A stretch of DNA of 58,797 nucleotides, counting the filler, from Basidiobolus ranarum (lineage: Eukaryota), in assembly GCA_040143965.1 (NCBI GenBank). It is 8 parts of 8 records of this genome, joined end to end, with 100 filler letters (N's around TTAATTAATTAA, not from the genome) between each part and the next. Parts side by side here need not be neighbours in the genome. Positions count along the whole stretch, not along the records: positions 44,191 to 51,444 come from JASJQH010008029.1; 7 more parts are not named here. One strand, written 5' to 3'. A model generated the notes under the pieces. The model searched no databases, was not told the DNA's origin, and saw nothing but the letters and a program-made list of their open reading frames with translations. The translations under genes and the position numbers were made by a program. Below are positions 7,279 through 55,920 of this stretch, in pieces. Each line of letters starts with the position of its first letter. The stretch's first letter is position 1.

Positions 7279-7378
7279 NNNNNNNNNNNNNNNNNNNNNN
7301 NNNNNNNNNNNNNNNNNNNNNNTTAATTAATTAANNNNNNNNNNNNNNNNNNNNNNNNNNNNNNNNNNNNNNNNNNNN
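7279..7378. other. Artificial contig linker
   Basis: 44 N + TTAATTAATTAA (stops in six frames) + 44 N. Confidence 0.99.
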
Positions 7379-10912: not shown

Positions 10913-11380
10913 TTAGGCAAGGCTGAGAACGTAATAGATGTTCGACGATTTGGATTTACCGCCATATCCGAAAACCATCCCTTCCTCGAGATGGGGCCCA
11001 GATTTGCCGACCTGTTCACCACCTTCGAAACGAGTTTTGGTAATATAGAGTTCCTGACCATCGGCTTCTCGGCCACCTTCTAGAGGCGTAAAGTTTTCGG
11101 CAATAGCTGGTCCACTATGTTCAACCCAACGGAGTTGATTGCCATCCCCGCAAAGAACGTAATAGTCAGGGAGGATAACTTCCTTATTTGCATAAGAGAT
11201 AGACAGTCCTTTAACATGCTCAGCAACTTTGCCAATCTGAAGGCCTCCCTCGTACTTCTGGCGACCAATATATAGGGGCTTTCCATCAGCTTCGACACCA
11301 CCTTGAACAGCATTGGGGGGGATTTGCCCATCCTTGGCATAAACCCATTGTACAGCTGGATGAGATTGAGCAGATGACAT
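10913..11380 (-). CDS. DM9-repeat (DUF3421) protein, lectin-like
   Basis: Two repeats of the DM9 pattern: WV...GQIPPNAVQGGVEADGKPLYIGR...IGKV...YYVL and WV...PLEGGREADGQELYITK...VGK...YYVL. Intronless, no signal peptide. Confidence 0.88.
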   Translation of the reverse strand: MSSAQSHPAVQWVYAKDGQIPPNAVQGGVEADGKPLYIGRQKYEGGLQIGKVAEHVKGLSISYANKEVILPDYYVLCGDGNQLRWVEHSGPAIAENFTPLEGGREADGQELYITKTRFEGGEQVGKSGPHLEEGMVFGYGGKSKSSNIYYVLSLA

Positions 11381-12191
11381 TACTATTGAGTATTAGGCTT
11401 ACAAACAAGAGGTAGTTTGACTGTCGATTCGTTATTTTCTTATCCTATTTATATTAGCATTTGGGACAACTATGAAGTGTCGTCACCAATAGACAGTTAT
11501 GATGGATTACCTTTGTGGTTTACTTAGTGATAAAGAAGGCACTCTATTGGGCCAAGAAAGCATAATCAGGTGGCTGAGCAGTCGGTATTGTATGGCTTAG
11601 TGTTAATTTCAAGTAAACTCGAATTGAAACTCGTCTACAAAAGCCGATATTTTAGTACAGTAGATTTGATATATTTGATGACGCAACAAAGCATCTATGC
11701 ACATTTTGCTTGGGTTCATAGAGTGCTGATTGATATTCCAAGTCCACGTAAACAATCCCCTATTAAACAGTATGACAACTTAATCCGATTCAGGAGATTC
11801 ACCAGATTTAGTCGCCAGAATTGTCATTTCAAGTTCACTTTGCCTGTTTTAAAAAGTTCGGGGTTTAGTTATTACTGGGTATTGCCGCATGCGTTATCTT
11901 CTCATCTACTGCATGGACTAAACAGTGTGAATATAAAGATGCAAACATAGCCTTGCTATCTCTACTTGATACCTAGTTACTTTTAAATTATCTATATGTT
12001 CTGACGTCAATCCAACCATCCAGAAGACTCAGTTTAGCGGGTGATGGTATATGATCATAGGCAATGAAGGGCAAATATATACTCTGAGTTCGTACTACAA
12101 TCCAGAGCTGCATGGTCTATGAAATGGACTCAAATTAATGATCTTGCTCTTTGCAATCGGATTAGATATTAATATTATTAAGCTCTGTGAG

Positions 12192-14652: not shown

Positions 14653-14752
14653 NNNNNNNNNNNNNNNNNNNNNNNNNNNNNNNNNNNNNNNNNNNNTTAA
14701 TTAATTAANNNNNNNNNNNNNNNNNNNNNNNNNNNNNNNNNNNNNNNNNNNN
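14653..14752. other. Artificial contig linker
   Basis: N-TTAATTAATTAA-N spacer. Confidence 0.99.
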
Positions 14753-14757
14753 CTCAT

Positions 14758-17013
14758 ATGGCATTAACATTTAGTTTTAGTATAGCTATTTTAATAGGAG
14801 TAACTATTTTAGGTCTACAAAGACATAAATCCCAGAGATCTTCAAGAAAAGCAACCTCCAGGAACCCATTAACTAGACGATCTACTCTCAACCCTATGCC
14901 CAGTCGTGATTTACTCAATGAATTGATTATGTTCGATAAACAACCAGAAATTGAAGTGGATGCAGAGAACATCGAGCATGATGACTCAAATAATGAAGTG
15001 TTGGAGAAAAAAAATCAAGAAACTCAAGTTTCATTTATAGAGGCTATGCCCAGTATTTGTCGTTTTTGTGGTTCCTCTGTTACTCCAACTTACATCAATA
15101 TATTTAAGGAGGTAGAAACAACCCCTACCGATAATAGTCTTCAAATCCACAAAGAAAATTCTGTCAAGAGCGAAGCAGTGCCTCATATCGTAGATAATGC
15201 AAGTGAAATTTTATCTAACAATGAAAAAAATTCCGCTTCCATTCAAGTGTCTGCATATCCCTCAGTATCTCTGACTGCTATCCAAGAATTCGAAGACGTA
15301 GAATCTAACACACAGAGGGCCTTGTTCATTGACAGGATTGAGCCAGAAGCTGATTCTTCTGCTACGTGTGGTGCTAAAATCTCACCTATTGATGAAGCAA
15401 CCTGTTCTGAGCTTATAGAGTCAGTGACGTCTATTGCCCAAGAGGCTCCAACAAGTGAACATGTTGACTCCAAAAAACTTCAAACTAGTACAGAAAATGT
15501 TATTGGTGATATAAATGTTCCCACTACTCTCGACTCCAAAAATGTATTGAATTTGAACAAGTCAGATTTTGAAATTAGCATACCCGAAGAACCTTCTGGT
15601 AATGTTGAATCTCGATCCTCCGAAGTTGCTGCTAGTGCTATCCTAGAAAATCATGAGCAGCCATTAAAAACTCTTGGAGGAGGGTATGAGGACTCAAGTG
15701 ACGATATCAGCACACACGTTCAATATTTAGATGTAGCAACCCAAGTTTCTGAAAGTTTATTGATACCATGGTCAAAAATAGATGCCGCTACTCAAACTAC
15801 TGACATCTCTACATCCCGAGTTCCATCTGAATCCGATAATAAGCTGTTCTCACCTCCAACTCGTCCTACTACTCAGCCTCCACCAGGATTAATGGCCCTT
15901 TCTCTTAGTCCAATCCGAGTTGACATGTCTTCACTAAGAATTGCCGATGAGATTGACTTTAGCAAGAACCCTAAAGCTCACCAGGCGGTCAGTCATAAAA
16001 GGCCACCTATCCCAGCAGCCATGCTTTTGCGAGCTACGCCATCCATGGAAATAGCGTCTGATGATAGCAAAATGGTGAATGACAGGTGTAATTCTGATAG
16101 AGAATCCATAGCTACGGAAAACAGTATCGGCCATGACCAAGTTGTTGCATCTTGTCCTAAACGAGATAGCTCTACTTGCACACCTACATCTATTGCGTCT
16201 ACAGGACCAAACTATCCAGCTTCGGCAAGCAGTGCTAGAGGAATGGATACGCTATCCACATATGTAACCGATTCTAGCCTTGTTTCAGCTGAAGAGAGTT
16301 GGCTAAATCGTCGTCGCACGTTCTCGGCAGATCCTGGTATAATCCACGCAATCACTCAAGCTATGATCGGCGACCTCATGTGGAAGTATACTCGTCGGGT
16401 CATTGGGACTGGTATTAGCGAGAAAAAGCATATGCGTTATTTCTGGATTCATCCCTATACTAATACCATCAACTGGAGTATAGAGCAACCAGGCCCTGAT
16501 AGAGTCATAGGTGACATAAACTCGAACTTTAAATCAGCCTGTGTAAGATCAATACAAGTGGTACAGGATCCCTCCACTGATGCGAATGCATCAGAGTTCA
16601 GTTTGATAATTCAAACCGCTACTAGAGAACTCAAAATCAAAGCACTAAGTAAAGAGAAACATGACATATGGCTCTTGGCTCTTACCTACTTGCAAAGTCG
16701 ACATGGTTTATCGACCCCAACTGCTCAAAGAAGTATCCATAATCTCAATGAAGCAGATCAAGAATCACCCTCACACAGACGTACACATCCATCTACCCCC
16801 TCCAAAACTCTGGATGGCCTTGCTCCAGTGCCTCGAAACGTTTCGAAAAAGCGTAGCCTCGTAAGATTATTCCACAAGCCTAGTAAATCTAGTCTCTCTT
16901 CTTCCACTGTCGATGCCAAAAACGCATCAAACGATATTGCGATCGATGAGGATATCCGAAAATGTTGTGATGGAAAGCACGACTTGCGAAAATTGGATAT
17001 GAAACACTCTTAG
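14758..17013 (+). CDS. Num1/Mcp5/ApsA-type PH-domain protein with N-terminal hydrophobic anchor
   Basis: C-terminal IIHAITQAMIGDLMWKYTRR...KHMRYFWIHPYT.TINWS...SLIIQTATRELKIKA...HDIWLLALTYL matches the Mcp5/Num1 PH domain, followed by a CCDGKHDL tail. Intronless 751-aa ORF. Confidence 0.85.
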   Translation: MALTFSFSIAILIGVTILGLQRHKSQRSSRKATSRNPLTRRSTLNPMPSRDLLNELIMFDKQPEIEVDAENIEHDDSNNEVLEKKNQETQVSFIEAMPSICRFCGSSVTPTYINIFKEVETTPTDNSLQIHKENSVKSEAVPHIVDNASEILSNNEKNSASIQVSAYPSVSLTAIQEFEDVESNTQRALFIDRIEPEADSSATCGAKISPIDEATCSELIESVTSIAQEAPTSEHVDSKKLQTSTENVIGDINVPTTLDSKNVLNLNKSDFEISIPEEPSGNVESRSSEVAASAILENHEQPLKTLGGGYEDSSDDISTHVQYLDVATQVSESLLIPWSKIDAATQTTDISTSRVPSESDNKLFSPPTRPTTQPPPGLMALSLSPIRVDMSSLRIADEIDFSKNPKAHQAVSHKRPPIPAAMLLRATPSMEIASDDSKMVNDRCNSDRESIATENSIGHDQVVASCPKRDSSTCTPTSIASTGPNYPASASSARGMDTLSTYVTDSSLVSAEESWLNRRRTFSADPGIIHAITQAMIGDLMWKYTRRVIGTGISEKKHMRYFWIHPYTNTINWSIEQPGPDRVIGDINSNFKSACVRSIQVVQDPSTDANASEFSLIIQTATRELKIKALSKEKHDIWLLALTYLQSRHGLSTPTAQRSIHNLNEADQESPSHRRTHPSTPSKTLDGLAPVPRNVSKKRSLVRLFHKPSKSSLSSSTVDAKNASNDIAIDEDIRKCCDGKHDLRKLDMKHS

Positions 17014-22020: not shown

Positions 22021-22120
22021 NNNNNNNNNNNNNNNNNNNNNNNNNNNNNNNNNNNNNNNNNNNNTTAATTAATTAANNNNNNNNNNNNNNNNNNNNNNNN
22101 NNNNNNNNNNNNNNNNNNNN
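22021..22120. other. Artificial contig linker
   Basis: N-TTAATTAATTAA-N spacer. Confidence 0.99.
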
Positions 22121-22850: not shown

Positions 22851-24043
22851 TTAAATACATATCTTGAAGATATAGCAACTACAAAAGAGATTGTATGCAT
22901 AGTAACCACATGGTAGCTTTCAGTACCAATATTTTTCTGAATTCTATATGGCATAAAGTTGTCTGAATAACATCTAAGCCCAATTTAGATTATAATCCAC
23001 TTGCATTTTATCGAAATCTTGAATGATCAATATTAAATGTGCATCACACCAAATTTCAATAGATTGCTAGTTTGAAGTATCACATATGGCTACAGACTTG
23101 CAGTAAACCTTTAGGATTTACTGGAAAAGCATACTATAACCAGTATTATGCAATAATATTATGGAAAAATAGCCAAGGGATAGAAAATATTTACAATTGA
23201 ATACATTAGCTGTATGTGACTTGTTCAAATAGAAGATACACTGATGGCGAATAATCGAACTCAGTAAGGAGAAATTGGAGCCAAATAGCTTGCTACTGAG
23301 TTTCATAATGGATGCAATTTGAACAAAGCCAATAGTGTAGACCTACTCTTCAAGAAGGCGAAAGCTGGACAGCTACGGGTAAAAGGTGTGCGCTCGAGCA
23401 CCAAGTCAACATTAGCTTGCAGATCTGGATATTCTGCTTTGATATTTTGGATGACTAAAAGTATCCTACACCGATGCTTGGAATGGAAAGAAGCACTTCT
23501 GTGGATGTATCCGAAGGATACTCAATAAGTTCGGAAAATTACATTATGTGGTTGGTAGGTCAGCACAGCTAGAGTTGAACATGCTATTTCTAATGGTTTT
23601 GACTTGGGTAATATTGCTGAGGATTACACCTATTTTACACCTCCAGTAATGAGGGAAATACTCGCTATACTAAACCCTCATACTCATTTGGCGTGATTGG
23701 CGCTGTTGTCCCACTTCACCCAATTGATGAAAATGAAATTTGGATTGTACACCATTCTGAACAACACCTAGTCCGACTGGTAGTGGTACATTTTTTCCAT
23801 ATTAGTAACCCTCTCCAATAATTCAGCTTTCCATATCAAAAAAGGAATTAACCAGCATGGCTCAGTATCTAATAATCTAACGACAATGCCGGATAAATGC
23901 GGATGAGACGGTTATCCATATATGTCTAATTCATCCTGCTTATAAAGGTCGTGGATAAATGTGCTGTATCAACATCGCAGCTAAACTATATAATACGTGC
24001 ACTCCGCGTTTTGTAGAAGTAATTGAAGCAAAGTAATCACATC

Positions 24044-24619
24044 ATGACTCAAGTATTCCGTATTGCTGGTATCTGTGGTGCTCTTCGCAAAGACTCTTGG
24101 AATATGAAGCTTCTTCTAGAGGCTAAAAGACTAGCTCCCGCAGGATCTGTAGTGGAAATAATTGATTGGTCCGAGCTTCCAATTTACAATGGTGAACTAG
24201 AAGAAGAACCACCAAAGTCAGTCATTGATTTCAAAAGCAAAATCGCCGCATGTGATGCAATTATCATTGCCACTCCTGAATATAATTTCTCGTACCCCGG
24301 TGCACTTAAGAATGCTATTGACTGGGCCAGTCGTCCACTTGGCACAACAAACTCTTTTTCTGGTAAAGCCATTGCTTTGATGAGTGCTGGACCAGGCGCA
24401 TATCCAGGAGCTAGCGGTGGTCACCGGGCTCAACTTCATCTTCAGCAAGTGCTTAGTATTCTTAACACACACCTTGTTAGCTTACCAATGATTTGTGTTA
24501 CGGGCTCTGCATCAGCTTTTGACGAGACAACTGGAAAGTTGGTAAGCGAGCATACTCAACAGAGCATAGCTCTTAAGCTAGAGAATCTTATCAACCTTTC
24601 GAAGAAAATTAAGGAATGA
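24044..24619 (+). CDS. NAD(P)H-dependent FMN reductase (ChrR/YieF/Lot6 flavodoxin-like family)
   Basis: GICGALRKDSWN, PEYNFSYPGALKNAIDWASRP and GGHRAQLHLQQV motifs. Intronless, ATG at 24044, TATAAAA at 23941. Confidence 0.92.
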   Translation: MTQVFRIAGICGALRKDSWNMKLLLEAKRLAPAGSVVEIIDWSELPIYNGELEEEPPKSVIDFKSKIAACDAIIIATPEYNFSYPGALKNAIDWASRPLGTTNSFSGKAIALMSAGPGAYPGASGGHRAQLHLQQVLSILNTHLVSLPMICVTGSASAFDETTGKLVSEHTQQSIALKLENLINLSKKIKE

Positions 24620-29380: not shown

Positions 29381-29480
29381 NNNNNNNNNNNNNNNNNNNN
29401 NNNNNNNNNNNNNNNNNNNNNNNNTTAATTAATTAANNNNNNNNNNNNNNNNNNNNNNNNNNNNNNNNNNNNNNNNNNNN
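29381..29480. other. Artificial contig linker
   Basis: N-TTAATTAATTAA-N spacer. Confidence 0.99.
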
Positions 29481-36736: not shown

Positions 36737-36836
36737 NNNNNNNNNNNNNNNNNNNNNNNNNNNNNNNNNNNNNNNNNNNNTTAATTAATTAANNNNNNNN
36801 NNNNNNNNNNNNNNNNNNNNNNNNNNNNNNNNNNNN
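36737..36836. other. Artificial contig linker
   Basis: N-TTAATTAATTAA-N spacer. Confidence 0.99.
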
Positions 36837-38318: not shown

Positions 38319-40894
38319 TTATGTTGACATAGATGCTAAACTACTGCTCGGATTATTTTCTTTTTTGACCATCACATCCACCTCTTTGCCAAAATCGAAC
38401 ACCTCAAACCACGTAGCACTCCTTCTCTGTACAGCAGCTACACATCGTCTTTCGTCGAATTGTACTTGCCAGACATGTTGCAATCCTACTAGCAAGTCCC
38501 GTACAAACTTCCCTGTTTTGATGTCCCACATCTTCAAGTTTGTTTCAGAGCCAGAGATGACCTTTTGATCATCGTGCTGAAAGCAAGTGATAGCACCGGT
38601 GTGTGTAGATAATACATTTCGACACGTACCAGTATCTGGATCCCAGACACGCAGTGTTGCATCGGCTGCAGCAGAAACCAGATGATTAGGTGTCAGACTA
38701 AGTAAACCTACTAGCGATGAATGGCCTACATAGGAATATATTTGATTAGCATTCGAACTAATGAGGTCAAAGCACACTATGGCTTACCTTCCAATGCGTA
38801 GATACATGTTCCATGTTCGAGACTCCAAATACGAACCGAGCAATCCATACTACCAGATATGCACCGGTTTCTATCCTTGTCAATAACCACACTGTATACC
38901 TTTTGCGTATGTCCCTCCAGCCTCCATTTACACTCTCCATTCATGACATTCCACACTCTAACTGTGCAATCGTAACTGCCACTCACTACGGTGTTTCCAT
39001 ATGCAGCGATGGCTCGGACGGAGTGTGCATGTCCCATCAAAGAACGCAAATAGAAAGGGTTCGGAGTGGTTTGTGCCTCACTAGACTCGTTACTTTCTGA
39101 AGGATATCTCGGATCATCGGAGGAAGGAAGTCTCCACACTCTTAAAGTAGAGTCGCGAGAACCAGTCACAATAATAGGATAGGGTGGCTCCATGATAGGT
39201 TCGCCCTCTTGGTCAGGGTTCACATTGGTAGGAATAAGGATTTGTAAGCATCGGACGGTGGACGAGTGTCCGCGAAAGGTGTGTGTGTTGATCCCTCGTT
39301 CAATATCCCAAATACGAACAGTACGATCAGTCGAGCCAGTCACCAATGTATTCCCATAGTATTGTAAGGCCCACACGCCACCATTATGGGCTTGCAGTTT
39401 CTTCCTTAAGCTACCCGTTTTCGTGTCATATATATGAATATCAAAGTCCTCAGTCCCGGAAACAATCTTGTCTGAATCAAATTGTAGACAGGTGACGACA
39501 CATTCACTATGTCCTTCAAATGAGATACTAGAGCATCGACCGCGCATCCAATTTCGGCGAATGATATGATGTCGTCGATACAAGTATTTATAGGTATGTT
39601 TGGCAACAACCTCCAAGCAATCACGGGGATCTGATGGGGCAGTGAGACCGGGGATAATCACTTCAAAATCATCTTCTGTATCACTTGCAACCAAGCCTCT
39701 AGATTCACCTGCTGCAAACTCATCTTCTCGTAATCTAGATTGGCCATCACTAATTCTTCTATTCTCGGATGCTATGGAAGGTGGATTCCTCAGAGGGTTC
39801 ATGCGCTTCTGCTTTTTTTCAAATGAATTCAAGACCATCATGTCTTCTTCGGTGAATTTGAATCCAGCAAGATTGAATAAACTTTTCCATATATTTACAT
39901 CAGAATCAACCAGCTTTCTCCAGCATTTACTTACTCTAGCTGAGCGACAGATACTTTGAATGTCCAAATATCTTACAATTTTTAGTCCAAGTTCATATGG
40001 CAATTTACCTAGAAAATCTATCTTTAAGTTGGGCAGTATGGTAGAAGCGATGAACTGAAGTGTTCCAGCATTGGATCTCTTGAGCATTTGAAAAAGCATA
40101 GCTTGTTGTATTTCAGCCGGCAAAGAATCAAATCGACTCAGTAGGCCAGGTAGATTTGGAAATGAGGTAGGTATCTTCGAAGAAGGTCCCACGAGTTCCT
40201 GATCCATCTCTTCTGTGTCCTTTCTATCCGTATCTTCTAGATCGAGTGGATTTTCTATCAATATTGGAGAAGAAGGAGAGCGGCAAGGTGAAGGCAAAGA
40301 AGCAGAATCTTCTCTAATTATCGGAATGCTTTCTGAAGTTCGTTCAAAATGAGCAAGAGATTGTGGAATAATTTGTGGGGAGATTTCGGGATTGGAACTT
40401 TGTGAAAATCGGGTTCGTTTGTATGGTGTTGGGGTAATATTTTCAGCTACTACTTCGGAATCGTCAGGAGAATCGGTGTTTCTTTTTAGTTTTGGAGGTG
40501 TTAAGGAGGTAAGAGTGGAAAGTACCTATATATGATAATACTATAAGATCAGTTTGTTAAAAAAGCACCAATTTTGAAAGATTACCTTGACGATATTCAA
40601 GTTGTGTGAAGAGGATATTTCATTATTATTTTCCAAACTACCAATCTTTAAAGCAGTTGGTGTGGGGAAATTTATGAGCGGATACTCTGTAGACGACCAC
40701 GGTAGCTTTGGAGAACCCGGAGGGTGCTTTAGCTTGCTGATATTAGTTTCCGTTGTAGTAGTAGTAGTAGTGTGGGTGGTAATGATAGGTGCAACTCTAT
40801 CTGAGAGTAAGAAGGGAGAGCGAGATATGGTTGAGGAATTGACGCTTGCTTCAGTTGGATTCTGTGATTCCGAAGGAGGATTTGAGTCATTCAT
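38319..40894 (-). CDS. CDC4: SCF F-box/WD40 substrate receptor, Cdc4/Fbw7 family
   Basis: Exons 40894-40586, 40525-38788 and 38725-38319. F-box (DFLGKLPYELGLKIVRYLD) and WD40 repeats with Cdc4-type segments VVTCLQFD, GGVWAL, GHSSTVRCL, IVTGSRDSTLRVW, GHSSLVGLL and GAITCFQHD. Confidence 0.9.
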
Positions 40895-41816: not shown

Positions 41817-43565
41817 ATGGCACACTTATTAAACACTGAAGCTGGTCCCGATTTGGACGAAGGCTATGATGAACAAAAGGTAGAGATTCCAGAATGGATG
41901 GATCTCTGGACCGATGAACAAAAGTCAGGTTGGCATTTATTTCACAATACTATATTTTCTGTTCAATATATTAACTTTTCGATGTCTTTTAAAGAGTTTG
42001 CCTACCAATTACTTTTATCAGTAAATCCACAATCTGTAGAAGGAGTCCTCTCTCGTCTAAATCCTTTATTGTACAAAGATTTCATCACACATTTACCTCA
42101 CGAGCTGGCTCTTCATATACTTAGCTATACAAATATCTCAACCTTAGGAAGAGTATCATCGGTATGTAAAAATTGGCAGCGAACGATAGACGACTCAGGC
42201 TTATGGAAAAAGATGTACTTCAATCAAGGTTGGGAGGTAAAAGAAACTGAGCTAAATAATATCGTAAGAGCCATTGAAGAAGACAGTATGAATGAATCCC
42301 AATATTCCGAATTGAGTGAGCAAAGCAATGAGTACGAAGAGGAAGATACAGAGCCCTTAGTTTCTCCATCTCAGATTGGTTTATCACCTGTCCACGTGAA
42401 TACCATTACTCGGCGTATTCCAGAGCTTTCTCTGAATGATGGATTTATACTGGTTCGTGCTCCTCAAGCACACCGTGAAAGGGTCTCGCACGACTCAAAT
42501 TCCAGCTCCTCGCGTCTTGGTTTAAACTCAAAAACAAGACGCCTGCACATCTCTCCTGCTTCTCCCAATCGAAAGACAAAAGGTCGAATACAAGGGGATC
42601 CTGTTTTTCTATACACGGAAGAAAACAAAGTCACAATCAACTGGAAATATCTGACCCAGCAACGAGCCAAGTTGAAGCATAATTGGGCTCATGTACACTA
42701 CCAGCTCAGACGATTGCCTGGTCATGCTGAAGGGATTTACTGTATCCAATTTGATGAAGCGAAGATAGTTTCGGGCTCCAGAGATCATACGATAAAGATT
42801 TGGGACATTCATAGTGGGTGCTGTATCTCTACTTTTCGTGGACATACGGCGTCTGTATTATGTTTGCAATATGACGATGAAATCATCGTGTCTGGCTCTA
42901 GCGATTCCAGTGTTATTGTTTGGGATGTCACATCAGGTGAAATTATTCGTGTTTTGACTGGTCACACCGAGCCGGTTCTAAACCTGAGCTTTGACAAGAA
43001 ACACATTGTCACTTGCTCCAAAGATCGATCTATTCGCGTTTGGGATCGTGCAACTGGTGCTCTATTACGTACCTTAACTGGACACAGAATAGCTGTGAAT
43101 GCTGTCCAGTTCAAAGATGGAATCATCGTTTCTGCTTCTGGCGACCGAACAATAATGATGTGGGATCTGGAGACTGGGATGTGTCTGAAGACACTTGTTG
43201 GCCACACACGAGGCATTGCGTGCGTACAATATGACGGAAAGGTGATTATATCCGGATCCAAGGATAGAACAATCAAAATATGGGATGCAATTACGGGTGA
43301 GTGCATTAGAACCTTAACTGGTCACACAGAGCTGGTCAGAACCCTACAATTTAACGACAAGGTGATTCTTTCCGGCTCTTACGATCGAACCATTAAAATA
43401 TGGGACCGCCAAACCGGAGAGCTGTTGGGTGATCTCAAGGATGGCCATGCCTGCCGAGTTTTTAAAGCCCAGTTTGATTACACTAAAGTCGTGTCGTGTT
43501 CTCAGGACCATCACGTACTGGTGTGGGATTTCGCCCATGATGTGGATGTCACTTATTTAGCTTAG
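41817..43565 (+). CDS. SCF F-box/WD40 protein, beta-TrCP/FWD-1-like
   Basis: Dimerisation-domain-like N-terminus (WTDEQKSEFAYQLL after removing intron 41929-41994), F-box DFITHLPHELALHILSY, seven WD40 repeats (IYCIQFDEAKIVSGSRDHTIKIWD, GHTRGIACVQY, GHTELVRTLQF, VVSCSQDHHVLVWDF). Confidence 0.88.
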   Translation: MAHLLNTEAGPDLDEGYDEQKVEIPEWMDLWTDEQKSGWHLFHNTIFSVQYINFSMSFKEFAYQLLLSVNPQSVEGVLSRLNPLLYKDFITHLPHELALHILSYTNISTLGRVSSVCKNWQRTIDDSGLWKKMYFNQGWEVKETELNNIVRAIEEDSMNESQYSELSEQSNEYEEEDTEPLVSPSQIGLSPVHVNTITRRIPELSLNDGFILVRAPQAHRERVSHDSNSSSSRLGLNSKTRRLHISPASPNRKTKGRIQGDPVFLYTEENKVTINWKYLTQQRAKLKHNWAHVHYQLRRLPGHAEGIYCIQFDEAKIVSGSRDHTIKIWDIHSGCCISTFRGHTASVLCLQYDDEIIVSGSSDSSVIVWDVTSGEIIRVLTGHTEPVLNLSFDKKHIVTCSKDRSIRVWDRATGALLRTLTGHRIAVNAVQFKDGIIVSASGDRTIMMWDLETGMCLKTLVGHTRGIACVQYDGKVIISGSKDRTIKIWDAITGECIRTLTGHTELVRTLQFNDKVILSGSYDRTIKIWDRQTGELLGDLKDGHACRVFKAQFDYTKVVSCSQDHHVLVWDFAHDVDVTYLA

Positions 43566-44090: not shown

Positions 44091-44190
44091 NNNNNNNNNN
44101 NNNNNNNNNNNNNNNNNNNNNNNNNNNNNNNNNNTTAATTAATTAANNNNNNNNNNNNNNNNNNNNNNNNNNNNNNNNNNNNNNNNNNNN
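44091..44190. other. Artificial contig linker
   Basis: N-TTAATTAATTAA-N spacer. Confidence 0.99.
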
Positions 44191-45041
44191 TTGTTGACCT
44201 GCCCTATTTTTACTTATAAACAAAAAAACAAATGAATATTTTGGTTGGTACAAGTACTTACATAAAAAGTAAAATCTATGAAGTCTTTTTCAATTGAGTA
44301 ATTTTGCTCCAGTAAGAAATCAATCAACTTCATTACACTGCATGCAATTCCAGCTAAGTGTATAACTATATTTTTTATAGAAATAATGCGTCAATAAGAA
44401 TCAAATCATATTGTGCCAAATCTCCAATAAATTGTAATTAATAGTGGTATGTGGCATAGTCACTAATGTATAGTAGTGCAGAAATGTATCATTAAAAGTC
44501 ATACTGACTTTCCACACTGGCAAAATATTTTCCCAGCTCTAGAAGTATAGTTCTTACAATATTGTATATATGACACCAGATCATTCGAGAGGAAAAAATT
44601 ATTCCTAACAAACAATTGCATAATAAAGTGGTCTAGAAGCGAGCAGGATAAGAACTTTTCTATGGGCTCAAAAGTTGTTGACTGGTTCAGTTAATTTGAC
44701 AAGACTATACAATTGCCACCAAATATAAAGGCACCATTTCTAAAGCCTCTGTGACCAAGTACTATCTGATATATAAGCAGATTTGTAGATCATTGTCCTA
44801 GGCTTACAGACTAAAATCTAAGTAGGACTATCACGACGAATTGAGAGGAATATAATTTAGTACTTTAGCAGATTGGGCTATCCTTGCAAGGGGTATTCAA
44901 AGGTACAAATGGTAAAAAGGTATAAATGGTAGAAAGGTATAAATGGTAGATTTGTGGATAACGTATCACTTGGCGAAATAGGGGTATCTGAAAAGCCCAA
45001 TACTATTATGTTTCTCCAACATGTTCGGCATTAAACTGAAT

Positions 45042-47162
45042 CTAGTCGACGATCTTAGTAAATAAAATGGACAAATTTTTTGGCTTGAATATCATCTCAG
45101 CTTCGAATTGCAGCTCGGTATCTGATTTAAGGAAGGATAAATTATATCTGCGAACTAAAAAACTATTAGAATGGAGCTGTATCTAGAGCAGAAATATACT
45201 AGTTAAACCTATCATAGCCAAATCAATCTTCAACTCAGTCATTGCGAACCCTTTGCCGATACCTTGATGGAATTTTCAACAACATCAGTTTAGGTCAGTG
45301 AAAATAACCTCGTCAATACTACTTACATATACGTGAACCATCCGCAAATGGACCCCAGGCAGAAGGGTTCAGTATGTTGCCGTCTTCGGAGATCCATCTT
45401 TGCGGTTGGAACATGTTTGGCGAATCCCAATACTCTTCGCTGCGGTGCATTGCATACATGTTCATATTGATGAGAGTGTCTTTGGGGATTGGTATGTTTC
45501 CTATGTATGTATCTTCTGCTGTGGTATGAGTAAGCAGCAGCGGGGTAGGTGGATAAAAACGCATGGTTTCCTTGATAACTGCCTCTAGGTAGCACAATGC
45601 TGAAAAAGTGGAGTGAACAAAACATCATTCTTACATATAGCTGAATTTACCTACATTTGATCTGAGAAGAGGTAGGAGCTTCCATTGTGGAAGTATGACC
45701 CTCAAATACACCGCTTATTTCCTCCCTTACTTTGGCCTGAATGTCTGGATGACGAGCTAGAAAGTAGATTGCACACGAGAGGGTACTTGCAGTGGTGTCT
45801 ATAAATACTCATTTAGTAAGTTGCACTGTTGGATTGTTATGGAGAATTATACCATGCCCCGCAATGATTAAAATTATCATCTCGTTCTACATGCAAGTTA
45901 TTAATTTCAGTTGCTGCATGTATAATGAGCCCAGATACTCACCACTACCTCCTCCAGCTCGAGACGTTTATCCAGCCACGACTTTGCCAGAACAGTTAGT
46001 AGATCGGAAGATATACTTTCCTGCCCAGGGGGCAACTTCTTTATTTCTTCGGCTCTGGCAATTGCAAGGTTACCCAATAATGTCCGAAATTCCTTCACCG
46101 CCATGTGGCCCTTTGCTCTGCTAGCTGATGGGAGTTTTTCAAGAATTGGAATGGCAATATATATCACGTTTAGGGCTGCCTTTACCGCATGAAAGTATGT
46201 GGAGATATGCTCGCCCTCTGGCTTACGAATGGCCTATTCATTACATGCAAATGAGTAAGAGTTCACTCAGGGGATTCTTAAAGTTACCTCAAAGTCAAAG
46301 CCAAACAAAACATTTCCGAGTGTATCCAGCGTCATTCTACGGGGTAGGAGGTTAGTTATCAGACCGAAAACTCACTATCGAAATGTTCTTACAATTCCAT
46401 AATGTGATACAAATCAGGCATGACCTCGACTGAATCGATATAGTTGAAGAAATCAAACACTGCTGTACAAAACTTCGCCGGTTCCCACCCAAGTCGAAAT
46501 TGCTGATTGATGATATCTCGGCGAAGTTTCCAATCCTGTTCATATGCGTAAGTTACCATCCTAGAGGACGCTCGTAAGATCAACTAACCTTGCCGTTACT
46601 ATTATATGATTAGTATTAGGATCTAGCAATATGCAAATAGATATGTTACCAGAAAACAATATTATTTCCCAGTAATTTGGTGATGAGAGCATTTGGATTT
46701 GTTGATATTGCCTCCTTAGGGAAGGTTTCTACAAGGAAGCTCAAATATCAAGTCGGATTGCCATCAAATGCATGAACTCTTACTTGTATTAGCCAGAACG
46801 GACTTGAAAAGCTCTGCATTGGAAATCTGATCAATGTGTTAGCCTTTAGGAGTAGTAGTCACTCGTAGAGAATTCCTATACCATCACTCCGGATCGTCCT
46901 TTGATACATGTCTGTTTTTGCAGATGCGTTAGTCTTAGATCAAGATGACTATTTGCGGCTCTACCTTTGCAATTCCTTCTTTGGGCATGGATTTCAAGTA
47001 GCATTTGTCTAGTACCTTTACTAGGTCTGTTCCAGTAAGCAGTAGGAAGGCAGCATACAAATCAGGCGTGGATGATAATCTTCTAAACTCCTTTGGCTCC
47101 TTTTGTTTATACCAGAGGAGGAGCCCCCCAAGAGCGACCAAGATCAATGAAAGAAACAACAT
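45042..47162 (-). CDS. Cytochrome P450 monooxygenase, 13 exons, apparently intact
   Basis: Manual GT-AG splicing gives an N-terminal membrane anchor, I-helix AGHDTT, ExxR (ETMR), PERF-like PQRW and heme motif FADGSRICIG, ending ...LFTKIVD* at 45042. Confidence 0.93.
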
Positions 47163-47812
47163 GTTTGACTAATTTCGTTGTCGCATTAACATGCTTTTTA
47201 TAGGTCTGGGTATGGATTCATCATCCAGCCTATGGTACGTGTCTGCAACGCATACCCCTGGTTATGTTTGCTTCCAATCAGGAGTGTCTTTGGAAACCCT
47301 GTCGGGAATGACCCAAATATAAAATACCTCCCCCTCACACGCGGCGGGGGGAAGTGCAATAGAATCGAGCCCCGCCAGGAAAGCGAAACGCATGGTTTCC
47401 ATGGCCTTGGCTAGGGGGCACGGTCCTTTTGGATTAGCCGGGGAGGGGGCTTTCCCATGCCTATTGGGTACTCTTCCCGACTTATTACGGGGGGAGGGGC
47501 CCCAAACAACCACCCCCTGATTCCTGCTGGGAGCCCGCCCCCAAGGTGGAGAGGGGAAGGGCCAAAGGGATCGGAAAGGGGCCACAGAATACTTCGCATA
47601 TTTCCTGGGGCAAATCTGTTTCGTATGGGACAATTGCTAGTCTTTTGCCTGCCAATCTTTACGAGAGTGTATTAAGTATGGTTATATCTCACAGCAGTGA
47701 ATGCCTTTATTTTTTATCTGCATGCGAACCATGTGGTGGCTTAAGAGTTTAAATTCTATAGCAACTAGCCATTACTTTTGTATCTTTTCTCAATACTCTT
47801 AAGATGATCGAG

Positions 47813-49846
47813 TCATTTCTGTGGAAATGTCTGATTAATGATGGATGTAAGCGGCCCAGACAAGTCAAGTATGAACAGCAAAATGGCCGCTTCACGTAAG
47901 GCTTCAAGTAGAATTATTTCACTATTTTTTTGCCGCCATTGCGTTGCTGCTTTGAAGGCCATATCAAGAATTTGTTGTTGGCAGTGCTGTGCGGCTATAT
48001 GATTTCTTTTGTGTATAGCTTCTGCACATGCCAACATCAGGTTAGCCACCAAAGCACATCCTCTCTCTGACATTTTGGATGCTATACGAGCATAGATATC
48101 TTGCCTTTCCAGACTCTTTGAGTTGAGTTCACCCTTTGTAAGTAGGCTTATACATCTATCTCTAGCTGTCTCAGTCATCCCCATAGTAGCTTCTCGGTCT
48201 ATTAGTGCTACAGCCCCCAAGACCCTGTGTCGTGCTGATGATATGGACCAGATAATGACGCCACCAAGCATTGCTCGGCCCGCAGAGCCTACCTTCAGGA
48301 GCTTAAGTACATGTTCACCAGTACTATCCTGGACACATGGGATTGATACTGGGCTTCCCTGCATGCAGACACTGTTCATTATCTCACCTTCAATCACGTC
48401 GGATACGAAATCCAACAAGTCGTGTACATAGGCCAAACTGCCACTCAAATCAGCCAACTCATCAACTGTGGCGCATACTTCTTTGTCCAATGCCACCACC
48501 CAGTAAGGCACCGTCCCAAAATCCCAAGCGCGTATCCTTCGTGCTTCTTCCGATCTGAGACATCCGGATTCTCTAATGATAGCCGCAACTCCTCTGGTCT
48601 TTGTAAAGGCCGGACCGGCGCCCATAATCATAGCAGTGCTACACATTGTCTGCCAGCATAATGCTCCTCGTGGTCCTAGGGATAGCAGTTGTCTGCCACC
48701 TATACTCACTCCTTGAATGCATTCATTAGCAACTTGCGGTGTGTAATAGACTGAATTCATTCCGTAATCAAGCAAGACTTCTATTGCTGCAGCACGGCAT
48801 AGGGCTTCCAATATTAAGCTGTTCGATGCAGTCGCAGTCATCAAAATTGCCGTGAGCGTGGTGCATTGGACTAGATTAACGTTTGCCTTCTCATTTGTTA
48901 TGGCAGCTACTTCGGCCATGTCGTTATCATTGGTGGCAACTGCTTGCTGTTTTCCTTTTGGGCCCTCTCCCAGTCGTTGCATTATACCCTCACAGAGTTT
49001 GGTCACGTCGTCTTCTTTTTTACCAGTAAGAGGAGATAAAACACTGACAACACTGCGTAACTGCCCTGCACCATAAATAACATCTCTATCACTTCCAGGT
49101 TGTCCAATTATGCAATCAAACTGACTTTCCAGTAGCCTTGACACCTCCAAGTCGATATCATAATGCTTTTGCTGTGTTGCTTCCAGAAGATGCGTAAGGC
49201 TACGGTACCGTTGAATTAGTTCCTCAATCTCGGGTTTAGCAGTGCTTAGTCTTTGCAATGTCTCTTGTAGTAGCTTACCACGGTTTCCAGTTATAGAACT
49301 TTCGTGCTCTGCATTTTTTACAGCCTCCAATATTGCGTGCTCCACTATTGGCCTTATTGTATCACTAGGCAAGAGTTCTTTCTCCACACACGAAGCAGAG
49401 TCGAAATCGATGTTTGTGCGCATTCTCAGGTCAAATTCACCCGCAAAACTATCAACAGTCTGCTCGGATGCCAATATCACAGGATAAGGCAAGCAAACTT
49501 TGTTTTCATTGCTTTCTGTCTTCATAGCCTCTGGTTGATTATACAAAGGAGTATTGGCTATTAACCATAGCCTTTGCTTGCTTTTATTACTAAATACAAT
49601 CTTTAGTGCTTCCACCGACACGCCCTTGATGTTCTTCTTGAGATACTTTTTGGAATTATTGCTCTCTTGGCAGCCTTGAGGATCGGCCTTATCCGCAGAT
49701 ACAAATAGCTCGTAGTTACTCCACCAGAAGTCAATAATCTCAACTGGATTCTCTCCGTTATAGTCCACCCTATTTCGCTTTGTCATGCAGTTGTTGGTTA
49801 GGAGTGGATTCTGCAAGCGGTCGATTACGTTAGCTGATCTCTTCAT
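47813..49846 (-). CDS. 677-aa intronless protein; putative non-canonical class I terpene cyclase with N-terminal extension
   Basis: The long ORF itself is secure. The function is inferred from ordered motifs E356-VLL-D360, R425-ESG, H475-DLLDFVSD-VIEGEIMN491 (NSE/DTE-like) and W533-SISSA-RH540 (WxxxxxRY-like). Confidence 0.6.
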   Translation of the reverse strand: MKRSANVIDRLQNPLLTNNCMTKRNRVDYNGENPVEIIDFWWSNYELFVSADKADPQGCQESNNSKKYLKKNIKGVSVEALKIVFSNKSKQRLWLIANTPLYNQPEAMKTESNENKVCLPYPVILASEQTVDSFAGEFDLRMRTNIDFDSASCVEKELLPSDTIRPIVEHAILEAVKNAEHESSITGNRGKLLQETLQRLSTAKPEIEELIQRYRSLTHLLEATQQKHYDIDLEVSRLLESQFDCIIGQPGSDRDVIYGAGQLRSVVSVLSPLTGKKEDDVTKLCEGIMQRLGEGPKGKQQAVATNDNDMAEVAAITNEKANVNLVQCTTLTAILMTATASNSLILEALCRAAAIEVLLDYGMNSVYYTPQVANECIQGVSIGGRQLLSLGPRGALCWQTMCSTAMIMGAGPAFTKTRGVAAIIRESGCLRSEEARRIRAWDFGTVPYWVVALDKEVCATVDELADLSGSLAYVHDLLDFVSDVIEGEIMNSVCMQGSPVSIPCVQDSTGEHVLKLLKVGSAGRAMLGGVIIWSISSARHRVLGAVALIDREATMGMTETARDRCISLLTKGELNSKSLERQDIYARIASKMSERGCALVANLMLACAEAIHKRNHIAAQHCQQQILDMAFKAATQWRQKNSEIILLEALREAAILLFILDLSGPLTSIINQTFPQK

Positions 49847-51444
49847 CTGGAGGTGTGTGCAGAGGTATAAAGAAAAATTTACGTTTAACTGACTTGCAAA
49901 TGTATATAGGCTTTTATATCAAAACTCAAGAACTTTGTGTACATAATGCACTAAATTCTTGTACATTATGACACAGCTGGTGCTATTGTCTGCAATTTAT
50001 GGGGCTAAATGTTTCTACGTAACAGGTACATGCTTGGTTCAGCTCCCTATCTTGCGTATGTATTGTTATAAAGACTGGATTTTGGATTTCCAATCAAAGG
50101 GGGAAATACTATGTGTTATGCACTCCTGAGCTTTCAGGATCTCCAATAGCACGATGTGGTACATTTCCCTTTTTGTGGTTTATTCTTTCCCAAACGCTAA
50201 CATTTTCTTACCTGCTGCGTAATGGCATAAGTGCATTGCTTGCTGTCACAAACTCAACCATCTGACAATAGTGATACCTTCCTATGCTCAATGGTATTGC
50301 AGCAATCCAAAATAAAAATAAAAAACCCTGACTGGTCTGAATCGCCTAACTCACCGTCAATCAAACCACTTACTGACTTGAATAATTTAACTTACCACAG
50401 AGATAATTGTGTGGTCCGATTACCACTGTGGTTTACTCTGCCACTTAAATCATGCTGCTCTTTTGGTAGGAGTGCAGAATCATAGCGATTTGATTGGTTA
50501 AAATCGCTTCAGTATTACGATATTTCCCGTAAGGTTAGGGGGGATGAAATCTTATGGGGGTGAAAAGCACCAAGTGATGTGGACTTTATCAAGCTTATGT
50601 ACTAATCCAAACAACGGTTGGGGGGAGACAGTCACCAATAGTTGAAATCTTTATTTCAAACAAAACAAAGAAGCCATAACTACTTTTGTAGTTTCTTCAT
50701 TAAACGGTTAAGTTTGGAAGTATTGAATCAAATGTTGCAAATGAGAAAAGTTAAGTTTGTAGAGTCTAAGACACTATTGAGTGGCCTGGGAGGGAATAAC
50801 AAAGGTAAAAATGGTTTCTCAACAATAGAAATTAGTGGAATAAGACTAGGATTAGCATAAAGCATACAGGGAGTGTGTTTCTGAAAATATTGCTGCCAAT
50901 GATCCACCAAGTATTCCTTGCAGGCAAGGGAGAACTTTTTGGCTTGTTCTATAAACAAAGCAAATTTTCTGACTTCAAGATCTCCTGGCAGTACTCTCTA
51001 CAATACTAGATCATATCCATACTTAACCTGATGACCAATATAATCAAGCTCAGAGGACATAAATATAGTGTTAAGGGGCAAAGGTGGTATGCAGAATGGA
51101 AGGTACTCAGTACAAACCAGATGGACAATAGGACAAAAACCTGGAATAATGGGAATTAAGAAAGGTGTCTTGGAGGCAAGGTATTGCTTCCAAAGGTCTA
51201 GCCGGAAGTCTATAGAACAATTTTAGGCTGTTTTGTTTCATGCAGCTGTAAAGCTAACTCAGAAACCAGAGGATTATCTTGTATCAATTTCCAGCTTGAT
51301 AGTGCATTTGAAGATGGTGTGGCTAGCCACTTCTTAATCAGTGGATTTCTTCAGTCACTTAGTTGGATTAGAAATCTTGCCCCAAGTAAAACTACTTTAA
51401 TACAATATGGGAAGAATCCAAAAGTTCCATTCAGAGCATGATCA

Positions 51445-51544
51445 NNNNNNNNNNNNNNNNNNNNNNNNNNNNNNNNNNNNNNNNNNNNTTAATTAATTAA
51501 NNNNNNNNNNNNNNNNNNNNNNNNNNNNNNNNNNNNNNNNNNNN
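51445..51544. other. Artificial contig linker
   Basis: N-TTAATTAATTAA-N spacer. Confidence 0.99.
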
Positions 51545-54882: not shown

Positions 54883-55920
54883 TCATAACATTTCATTCCA
54901 AAACAAACAGCTAATCCAAATCCAAGCCCAAACCCAATTAAGGGAGACGGTGGGTGCGCTGAAAGAAATTTTCGGGGAACTGTTTTGTAATGGATCTCCA
55001 CTTGATAAGCTGGTATGCTGTGATATGAAATCCATGTAAGGGTACACATGTGTGTAGATTCCAAGTGTCCCTTGGCCACCACAAGTAAGCTTCGTACTGC
55101 TATTCCAACTTGCCGCATAGCTCGTGATGCCAACCAACTCATTTGGGTAGCCCATACTGACAAGAGGGCCACCTGAATCGCCATAACATGTGTCACTATC
55201 AGTAGATTCGGCGCATATTTGTAATCCATTATTATCTTGGTAATTTTCAAGATGGTTGCGACATTTTTCAACTCTTTTGGAGGAGTTGATTTTGGCTTCC
55301 TTCAGATATGTACTTTCTTTACCCTCTTCTGTTTCCCCCCAACCCAAGGCTATAAAGTCCTCGTCGACTTTAATCCTCTCTTGACTGATCTTGATCGAAT
55401 TTACTTGTGGATTGAATATCATCTTCGTCGATACCTTAAGCAGGGCTATGTCATTCTATATCAAAGAGGAAGGGTAGAGGTAAAGTGAAAGTTGATGTTA
55501 ACTTGATATTCTTCAATAAGTCAGGTCCTCCAATAACAAATCACATTCCCATAAGCTTACTTTCAAGAGAACATTGTCAAACTCAGGATGGATCACGAAG
55601 TAGCTCACGCTTAAAGGAAATAGAGCTGTGTTTGCTCTATTTCCAATGACCACTTTTATATCCTTAGATTCGTAGGTTGCTGAAAGAGATTGCTCTTGTT
55701 GAAATAGACAATGACCAGCGGTTAGTATCCAATTTTCATCGATTATACTTCCACCGCAAGTGGGATTATCTTTGATAAACAGGTGACAGATAAACGGGAA
55801 CTCCTCAATTCTTTTCACTTCTTTACCACCGATCACAAATGAGTAATTCACGATGGTTCTACCGCTCGTATTAATTGACCAGCCCAAAAACGTCAACCAT
55901 TGAATAAACAATCCTCTCAT
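54883..55920 (-). CDS. Secreted trypsin-like (S1A) serine protease with hydrophobic C-terminal tail
   Basis: Signal peptide, VIGG mature start, CGGSII...LTAGHC, intron 55560-55456, NDIALL and DTCYGDSGGPL give a complete His-Asp-Ser triad. Confidence 0.93.

Follow-up and report, generated by a model that had tools for sequence, protein, structure and literature searches.

An intronless orphan gene upstream of a cytochrome P450 in Basidiobolus ranarum as a candidate non-canonical terpene cyclase

In the window analysed here, a 58,797-base stretch of DNA from the zoopagomycete gut fungus Basidiobolus ranarum, an intronless open reading frame (ORF) of 677 amino acids (aa), referred to below as ORF677, lies upstream of a cytochrome P450 gene. 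The reading favoured here, held tentatively and at a little short of an even chance, is that ORF677 encodes a non-canonical, class I-like terpene cyclase that feeds the P450. Three independent signals, each at the level of a lead, agree in suggesting a cyclase: the neighbours of the protein in language-model feature space, a C-terminal motif block of the class I synthase type, and a constellation of residues comparable to those of the fungal cyclases VigB and TriDTC. They leave the cyclase reading somewhat strengthened and still a hypothesis, and they do not place ORF677 in any known cyclase family.

An earlier note on this DNA had described a 677-aa intronless ORF located 650 base pairs (bp) upstream of a complete P450 on the same strand, and the ORF listing, the gene model and the coordinates bear this arrangement out. 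The elements concerned are the following.

47813..49846, minus strand: ORF677, an intronless 677-aa orphan and candidate non-canonical terpene cyclase (from the ORF listing and codon usage)
47163..47812, minus strand: intergenic spacer of 650 bp, comprising the 3' end region of ORF677 and the P450 promoter region
45042..47162, minus strand: cytochrome P450 gene with 12 exons, encoding 491 aa with an N-terminal membrane anchor (from a hand-built model, Pfam and alignments)

Synthase-like signals in ORF677

Language-model features place ORF677 close to terpene synthases, on a scale where scores under 0.9 count as leads only. For the whole protein, TRI5/Terpene_syn_C_2 clusters appear at ranks 9, 14, 15 and 20 with scores of 0.86-0.88. 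For residues 250-677, terpene-synthase clusters appear at ranks 8, 11, 13 and 19 (0.88-0.89) and make up four of the six named sets among the matches listed, while the first three matches of this segment, 481-532 aa long, come from unnamed clusters of fungal and actinomycete proteins and score 0.93-0.94 with 189-202 shared features.

The second signal comes from motif blocks that were fixed beforehand. Genes of the family PF19086 from five actinomycete genomes served as the source, and an alignment of 12 single-domain class I synthases (set A1) yielded four blocks, corresponding to the DDxxD motif, the Arg sensor, the NSE motif and the RY pair. The best site of the RY block in ORF677 spans residues 524-543 (RAMLGGVIIWSISSARHRVL) and scores 14.1, the next best site scoring -5.2; this value is reached by 24 of 50,000 shuffles, which corresponds to a chance of about 2 in 1,000 once corrected for the four blocks. 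A block made from 13 other PF19086 domains, a second set that is not fully independent because it comes from the same Pfam family as the first, puts the same site on top with a score of 4.5, reached by 644 of 50,000 shuffles. Applied to this second set, the A1 RY block gives 16.4-25.6 for eight of the 13 synthase domains and -1.3 to 3.2 for the other five; among the negatives, 329 unrelated six-frame ORFs (76,272 residues) score no higher than 11.0 and the other ORFs of the window no higher than 4.8. ORF677 thus scores above every negative yet below the clear positives. A search for TRI5 (PF06330) as a source of independent synthases found the family in none of 301 actinomycete genomes and in none of the control genomes, which left no second family for comparison. 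The core of the site is a single element:

48227..48262, minus strand: G529xxxW533xxxS537xR539-H540, in register with the class I motif GxxxWxxxSxRY, with Y replaced by H

ORF677 carries the C-terminal GxxxWxxxSxR(Y/H) block of canonical class I synthases (PF19086, PF06330) in register, the protein is predicted to consist largely of helices, and in language-model feature space it lies nearest to these families. It differs from them in having no hidden Markov model (HMM) match, no DDxxD and no NSE/DTE motif and in being about twice as long. The RY-like site also follows the second motif more closely, after 64 residues versus about 86 in the bacterial reference synthases.

Comparison with VigB and TriDTC

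The non-canonical diterpene cyclase VigB, which acts in vinigrol biosynthesis in Virgaria nigra, is described in the available text of PMC12703729 as a 589-aa protein with no synthase-family match, clustered with a geranylgeranyl diphosphate (GGPP) synthase and a P450. Its catalytic motifs, called strictly conserved there, are D260YGT, R339, N369DIQDYERD and an RY pair that includes Y436. The TriDTC enzymes (Tri4155), non-canonical diterpene cyclases of Trichoderma, carry the catalytic triad D445VGDLCAD452 and, according to the available part of PMC12370890, are hypothetical proteins without a known domain, a canonical motif or an RY pair; that account gives 38 homologues in three genera, reports inactive homologues and proposes a de novo origin. 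Possible counterparts of these sites in ORF677 are as follows.

48758..48769, minus strand: D360-Y-G-M, a possible equivalent of VigB D260YGT, that is, of the substitute for the Asp-rich motif
48530..48532, minus strand: R439, possibly the Arg that senses the diphosphate, located 79 residues beyond D360, the distance that separates R339 from D260 in VigB
48398..48424, minus strand: H475-DLLDFVSD483, an Asp triad (DxxDxxxD) where the NSE motif would lie

The assignment of R439 is weak, because the position was picked after the fact. As far as the published excerpts on VigB go, both proteins are oversized (589 versus 677 aa), unrecognised by synthase HMMs and encoded next to a P450; both carry a single-Asp DYG instead of DDxxD, a second motif of the DxxDxxxD type, an Arg 79 residues after DYG, and a pair of Arg with an aromatic residue or His 65-67 residues after the second motif. 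The successive spacings between the sites are 79, 30 and 67 residues in VigB versus 79, 36 and 65 in ORF677, with 153 and 137 residues, respectively, following the last site. The settings differ: the VigB cluster includes a GGPP synthase, whereas none is seen on the short ORF677 contig, and VigB comes from a xylarialean ascomycete and has homologues, whereas the host of ORF677 is a zoopagomycete and no homologues of ORF677 were found.

With TriDTC, as portrayed in the accessible sections of its description, ORF677 shares the DxxDxxxD triad (D445VGDLCAD452 versus D476LLDFVSD483, with D476, D479 and D483), the status of a hypothetical protein without a known domain or canonical motif, and a very narrow taxonomic distribution. 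The differences are that an RY pair is missing from TriDTC, while ORF677 carries R-H, resembling RY, in a synthase-like context; that no homology between the two is detected by phmmer at E<=0.001 among 1.84 billion representatives; and that a linkage to a P450 is not described for TriDTC in the available part of PMC12370890.

Homology searches and fold prediction

ORF677 is a lineage-restricted orphan. Word-indexed searches of 5.8 billion protein clusters returned the protein itself and nothing else, both with the whole sequence and, at E<=10, with residues 330-560, and the exhaustive phmmer search of the 1.84 billion representatives had the same outcome; the E-values are scaled to very large libraries, in which relatives below roughly 50 bits would stay hidden. 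Relatives were likewise not found in metagenome contigs and viral contigs, and NCBIfam and PHROGs gave no match. When residues 250-677 were searched against 401 actinomycete genomes in six frames, the best per-genome E was 7.8e-4, which is noise; 16 of the 401 genomes gave matches at E<=0.05, about the chance expectation, and the best E among the first five genomes was 0.049. The available part of PMC7466969 contains no description of the gene, and the locus-tag prefix K7432 was not found in the papers listed for B. ranarum.

Pfam searches at E<=10, with the whole protein and with six segments, found no repeat family. Viral_DNA_Zn_bi (E 0.027-0.81), RPW8 (E 0.061) and other Pfam matches were dismissed as noise. 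Sequences in the PDB gave seven weak matches only, with E of 0.21-1, again noise. Residues 294-383 (48698-48967, minus strand) are matched by phmmer to the ankyrin-repeat domain of human CLPB at E 0.21-1, and the sequence there (…ANVNL…LLDYGMN…) resembles ankyrin, including at the DYG read above as a cyclase motif. This resemblance is probably noise, because Pfam finds no ankyrin repeat, yet it offers an alternative reading of the DYG motif.

Structure prediction gave models of very low confidence, for which reason the fold test is uninformative rather than negative. AlphaFold2 run without an alignment reached a mean predicted local distance difference test score (pLDDT) of 36.1 for the whole protein and 38.7 for residues 250-677 (36-39 in round figures), and the Atlas model from ESM has a pLDDT of 0.45. 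Foldseek with the AlphaFold2 model of residues 250-677, whose pLDDT of 38.7 is too low to be meaningful, returned no match at E<=0.001 and no terpene synthase among the 48 matches listed (ranks 1-50). For the same residues of the Atlas model, the best structure is a UbiA prenyltransferase cluster, with template modelling (TM) scores of 0.39/0.52 that lie under the bar of the tool.

Weighing the cyclase reading

Several results weigh against a cyclase. ORF677 has neither strict NSE/DTE nor RY motifs, and the absence of a canonical DDxxD, pointed out in the earlier note, extends to DDxx[DE] anywhere in the protein; [DE][DE]xx[DE] occurs once, as DELAD at position 462, 13 residues before the second motif, and the second metal-binding motif (N/D)Dxx(S/T/G)xxxE has no strict match. 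The Pfam searches, permissive as their threshold of E<=10 was for the whole protein and the six segments, found no terpene-synthase family, whether PF19086, PF06330 or PF03936. The DDxxD, Arg-sensor and NSE blocks have no significant site in ORF677, the best site of the NSE block being H475DLLDFVSD with a score of -1.6, which 19,573 of 50,000 shuffles reach. When ORF677 is compared by hhalign with the profile of the 12 synthases, the single local match is the G529-H540 stretch, in the same register, at a probability of 0.17% and an E of 0.35, no better than a WD40 control (E 0.26).

The comparison with VigB and TriDTC has to be read with similar restraint, as it was made from published motifs, without full sequences and after the fact. 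N369 and Y436, both called strictly conserved in the available VigB text, are replaced in ORF677 by H475 and H540, and with these changes from N to H and from Y to H, enzyme activity would call for an unusual metal site. Of 200,000 shuffles, 3.9% contain DYG by itself and 6.9% DxxDxxxD by itself, the latter being weak evidence taken alone. The ordered constellation of motifs is found in six of the 200,000 shuffles in a loose version and in none in a tighter one, but these counts greatly overstate the significance, since the patterns were chosen after both sequences had been seen. No homologue has been found, so there is no conservation to speak for any residue.

The remaining adverse points concern the leads from similarity and the genomic context. 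All named-family language-model scores lie below the 0.9 bar, and one TPR family scores equally (0.89) and has the most shared features (173) among the named matches; the structure matches listed for the low-confidence Atlas model include no synthase. A prenyl-diphosphate synthase was not found on the ORF677 contig, which covers 7.25 kb only. Adjacency is the sole basis for pairing ORF677 with the P450, the contig being too short to show a cluster. The proposal of the earlier note, that ORF677 makes a terpene scaffold which the P450 oxidises, has the three leads on one side and the missing synthase HMM match and control-level hhalign result on the other.

A competing reading makes ORF677 a helical protein specific to its lineage whose function has nothing to do with terpenes, such as a scaffold or a regulator, its motifs being due to chance and the P450 a mere neighbour. 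Such a role is a serious possibility, with a probability somewhat below even. All formal homology tests of ORF677 are negative; the named language-model matches are under the bar, with TPR on a par; the Atlas structure matches include TPR, Sel1 and HEAT clusters at TM 0.25-0.32; the weak PDB matches (E 0.21-1) point to an ankyrin-repeat domain; the VigB-type patterns were defined in retrospect; and two neighbouring genes on a 7-kb contig do not make a cluster. What an unrelated function accounts for less readily is the C-terminal block, which was defined in advance, stands out both from shuffles and from 85,798 residues taken from real ORFs, and lies at the expected distance after the Asp triad. 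Also against this reading, ORF677 showed no internal repeats and no match to a Pfam repeat family.

ORF677 as a native gene

ORF677 is a native protein-coding gene, neither an artefact nor recent foreign cargo. It runs from ATG to TGA within a stop-free frame of 701 codons, a length far beyond chance at 45% GC. Its GC content of 0.45 (GC1 0.52, GC2 0.41, GC3 0.42) compares with 0.43 for the P450 coding sequence and 0.43 for an F-box/WD40 gene of the window and is higher than in introns (0.36) or flanks (0.33-0.38). A log-odds model of codon usage derived from nine recognisable genes of the window, with a leave-one-out range of 0.092-0.225 bits per codon, gives ORF677 a score of 0.112 bits per codon, which is inside the range of the nine genes and positive in its own frame only; the score is uniform along the length (0.06-0.16), and non-coding pieces are negative in all frames. 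Long intronless ORFs are usual in the window, as illustrated by the WD40 genes (582 aa) and an Mcp5_PH ORF (752 aa).

These properties bear directly on the idea that ORF677 is a young or decaying gene devoid of catalytic activity, either an inactive cyclase relic or a recently arisen open frame. That idea draws on the finding of ORF677 only once, in one assembly, in searches covering about 15 billion proteins, on the replacement of the would-be metal and diphosphate ligands (H475, H540), and on the precedent of the TriDTC family, for which the available part of PMC12370890 reports inactive homologues and proposes a de novo origin. A frame of 677 codons with a uniform native codon bias is, however, unexpected for fresh non-coding or decaying sequence, and ORF677 contains no frameshifts or stops. 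We regard an inactive young or decaying gene as improbable.

That ORF677 is mobile-element or viral cargo, or was acquired horizontally in the recent past, is less probable by far and comes close to being negligible. Such an origin would fit the contrast between the intronless ORF677 and its neighbour with 11 introns, as well as the compositionally odd stretch of 56% GC just downstream of ORF677. Yet the codon usage and GC of ORF677 match those of the host genes, long intronless ORFs occur among other host genes as well, the flanks of ORF677 show neither terminal inverted repeats nor long direct repeats, and no copy of it was found on the other seven contigs; nor did PHROGs provide a family, or the viral contigs, the metagenome contigs and the 401 actinomycete genomes a relative.

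The neighbouring P450, the spacer and the contig

The gene downstream of ORF677 encodes an ordinary cytochrome P450 of full length with a membrane anchor. Its model extends from an ATG at 47162 to a TAG ending at 45042 and contains 11 introns, all GT-AG and 53-89 nucleotides long. The spliced product has all of the I-helix motif AGHDTT, the ExxR motif (ETMR) and the haem loop FADGSRICIG, and two of its exons match Pfam p450 (PF00067) at E 2.7e-33 and 1.6e-11. The 374-aa model deposited for B. ranarum, K7432_012763, is identical to exons 5-12; it starts at Met118 of the 491-aa model and is without the four upstream exons (46650-47162, minus strand), which encode the membrane anchor and the N-terminal region. 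Residues 1-470 of the 491-aa model align to residues 5-474 of a 497-aa P450 with 29% identity (E 1e-52), and because this alignment runs end to end, the gene is complete and K7432_012763 is truncated at its N terminus. The protein resembles microsomal P450s (PF00067) in its full length, its N-terminal anchor and the possession of all hallmark motifs, and differs in being only 29-32% identical to the four other P450s retrieved.

The distance from the ORF677 stop to the P450 ATG is exactly 650 bp. Within this spacer, positions 47262-47640 form a stretch of 379 bp with 56% GC and many runs of G and C, the contig flanks having 33-38% GC. Examined as a possible structured RNA, the stretch gave no Rfam family, no tRNA and no excess of folding stability (fold z -0.31), and it has no copy on the other seven contigs.

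ORF677 and the P450 both lie entirely within the seventh contig of the window (44191-51444, 7,254 bp), which extends a further 1.6 kb on the upstream side of the pair and 0.85 kb on the downstream side. The claim that the contig holds no other recognisable genes is upheld, as its eight flank ORFs and four intergenic ORFs match no Pfam family at E<=0.1. The window as a whole consists of eight contigs of 7,253-7,278 bases, ordered by size and joined by N44-TTAATTAATTAA-N44 spacers; since it is not contiguous DNA, nothing can be inferred across the spacer points.

7279-7378, 14653-14752, 22021-22120, 29381-29480, 36737-36836, 44091-44190 and 51445-51544: spacers between contigs

Proposed role and significance

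If the cyclase reading is right, ORF677 would be a metal-dependent, ionisation-type (class I-like) terpene cyclase akin to VigB and TriDTC, with an active site formed by the central part of the protein, about residues 340-545. The ligands for the divalent metals and for the diphosphate of farnesyl diphosphate or GGPP would be D360 of the DYG motif, H475 together with D476/D479/D483, R439 and R539. Loss of the diphosphate would start the cyclisation, and the hydrocarbon or alcohol product might then be oxidised by the adjoining P450.

It is tempting to go further and to regard ORF677 as the founding, and so far single, member of a new non-canonical cyclase family in an early-diverging (zoopagomycete) gut fungus. 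In this extended proposal, a metal site made of a His plus an Asp triad (H475, D476, D479, D483) and an R-H pair would replace NSE and RY, and the P450 would complete a minimal two-gene pathway to an oxidised terpenoid that is invisible to cluster finders. We consider this extended proposal less likely than not.

Both VigB and TriDTC are non-canonical terpene cyclases that were reportedly found only recently and by chemistry-first routes, because no sequence model recognises such cyclases, and secondary metabolism is barely explored in the phylum to which B. ranarum belongs. If ORF677 is a cyclase, it would widen the known sequence space of enzymes that make terpene scaffolds and would offer a test of the function of a His-containing variant of the metal site, in a two-gene unit that is small and easy to express. 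If it is not, the case shows that a short motif resemblance combined with a P450 neighbour is insufficient for calling a terpenoid cluster.

Other genes in the window

Several genes on the other contigs were recognised in passing. Two F-box plus WD40 genes, at 38777-40525 (minus strand) and 41817-43565 (plus strand), lie divergently on one contig, each as a 582-aa intronless ORF, and look like a tandem-inverted pair of paralogues. Elsewhere there are a DM9-repeat protein (10913-11392, minus strand), an Mcp5-type PH-domain protein (14755-17013, plus strand), an NADPH-dependent FMN reductase (24023-24619, plus strand) and a fragment of a trypsin-like protease (54883-55455, minus strand), and this mix of DM9, protease, Mcp5_PH and FMN reductase genes is typical of an early-diverging fungus.

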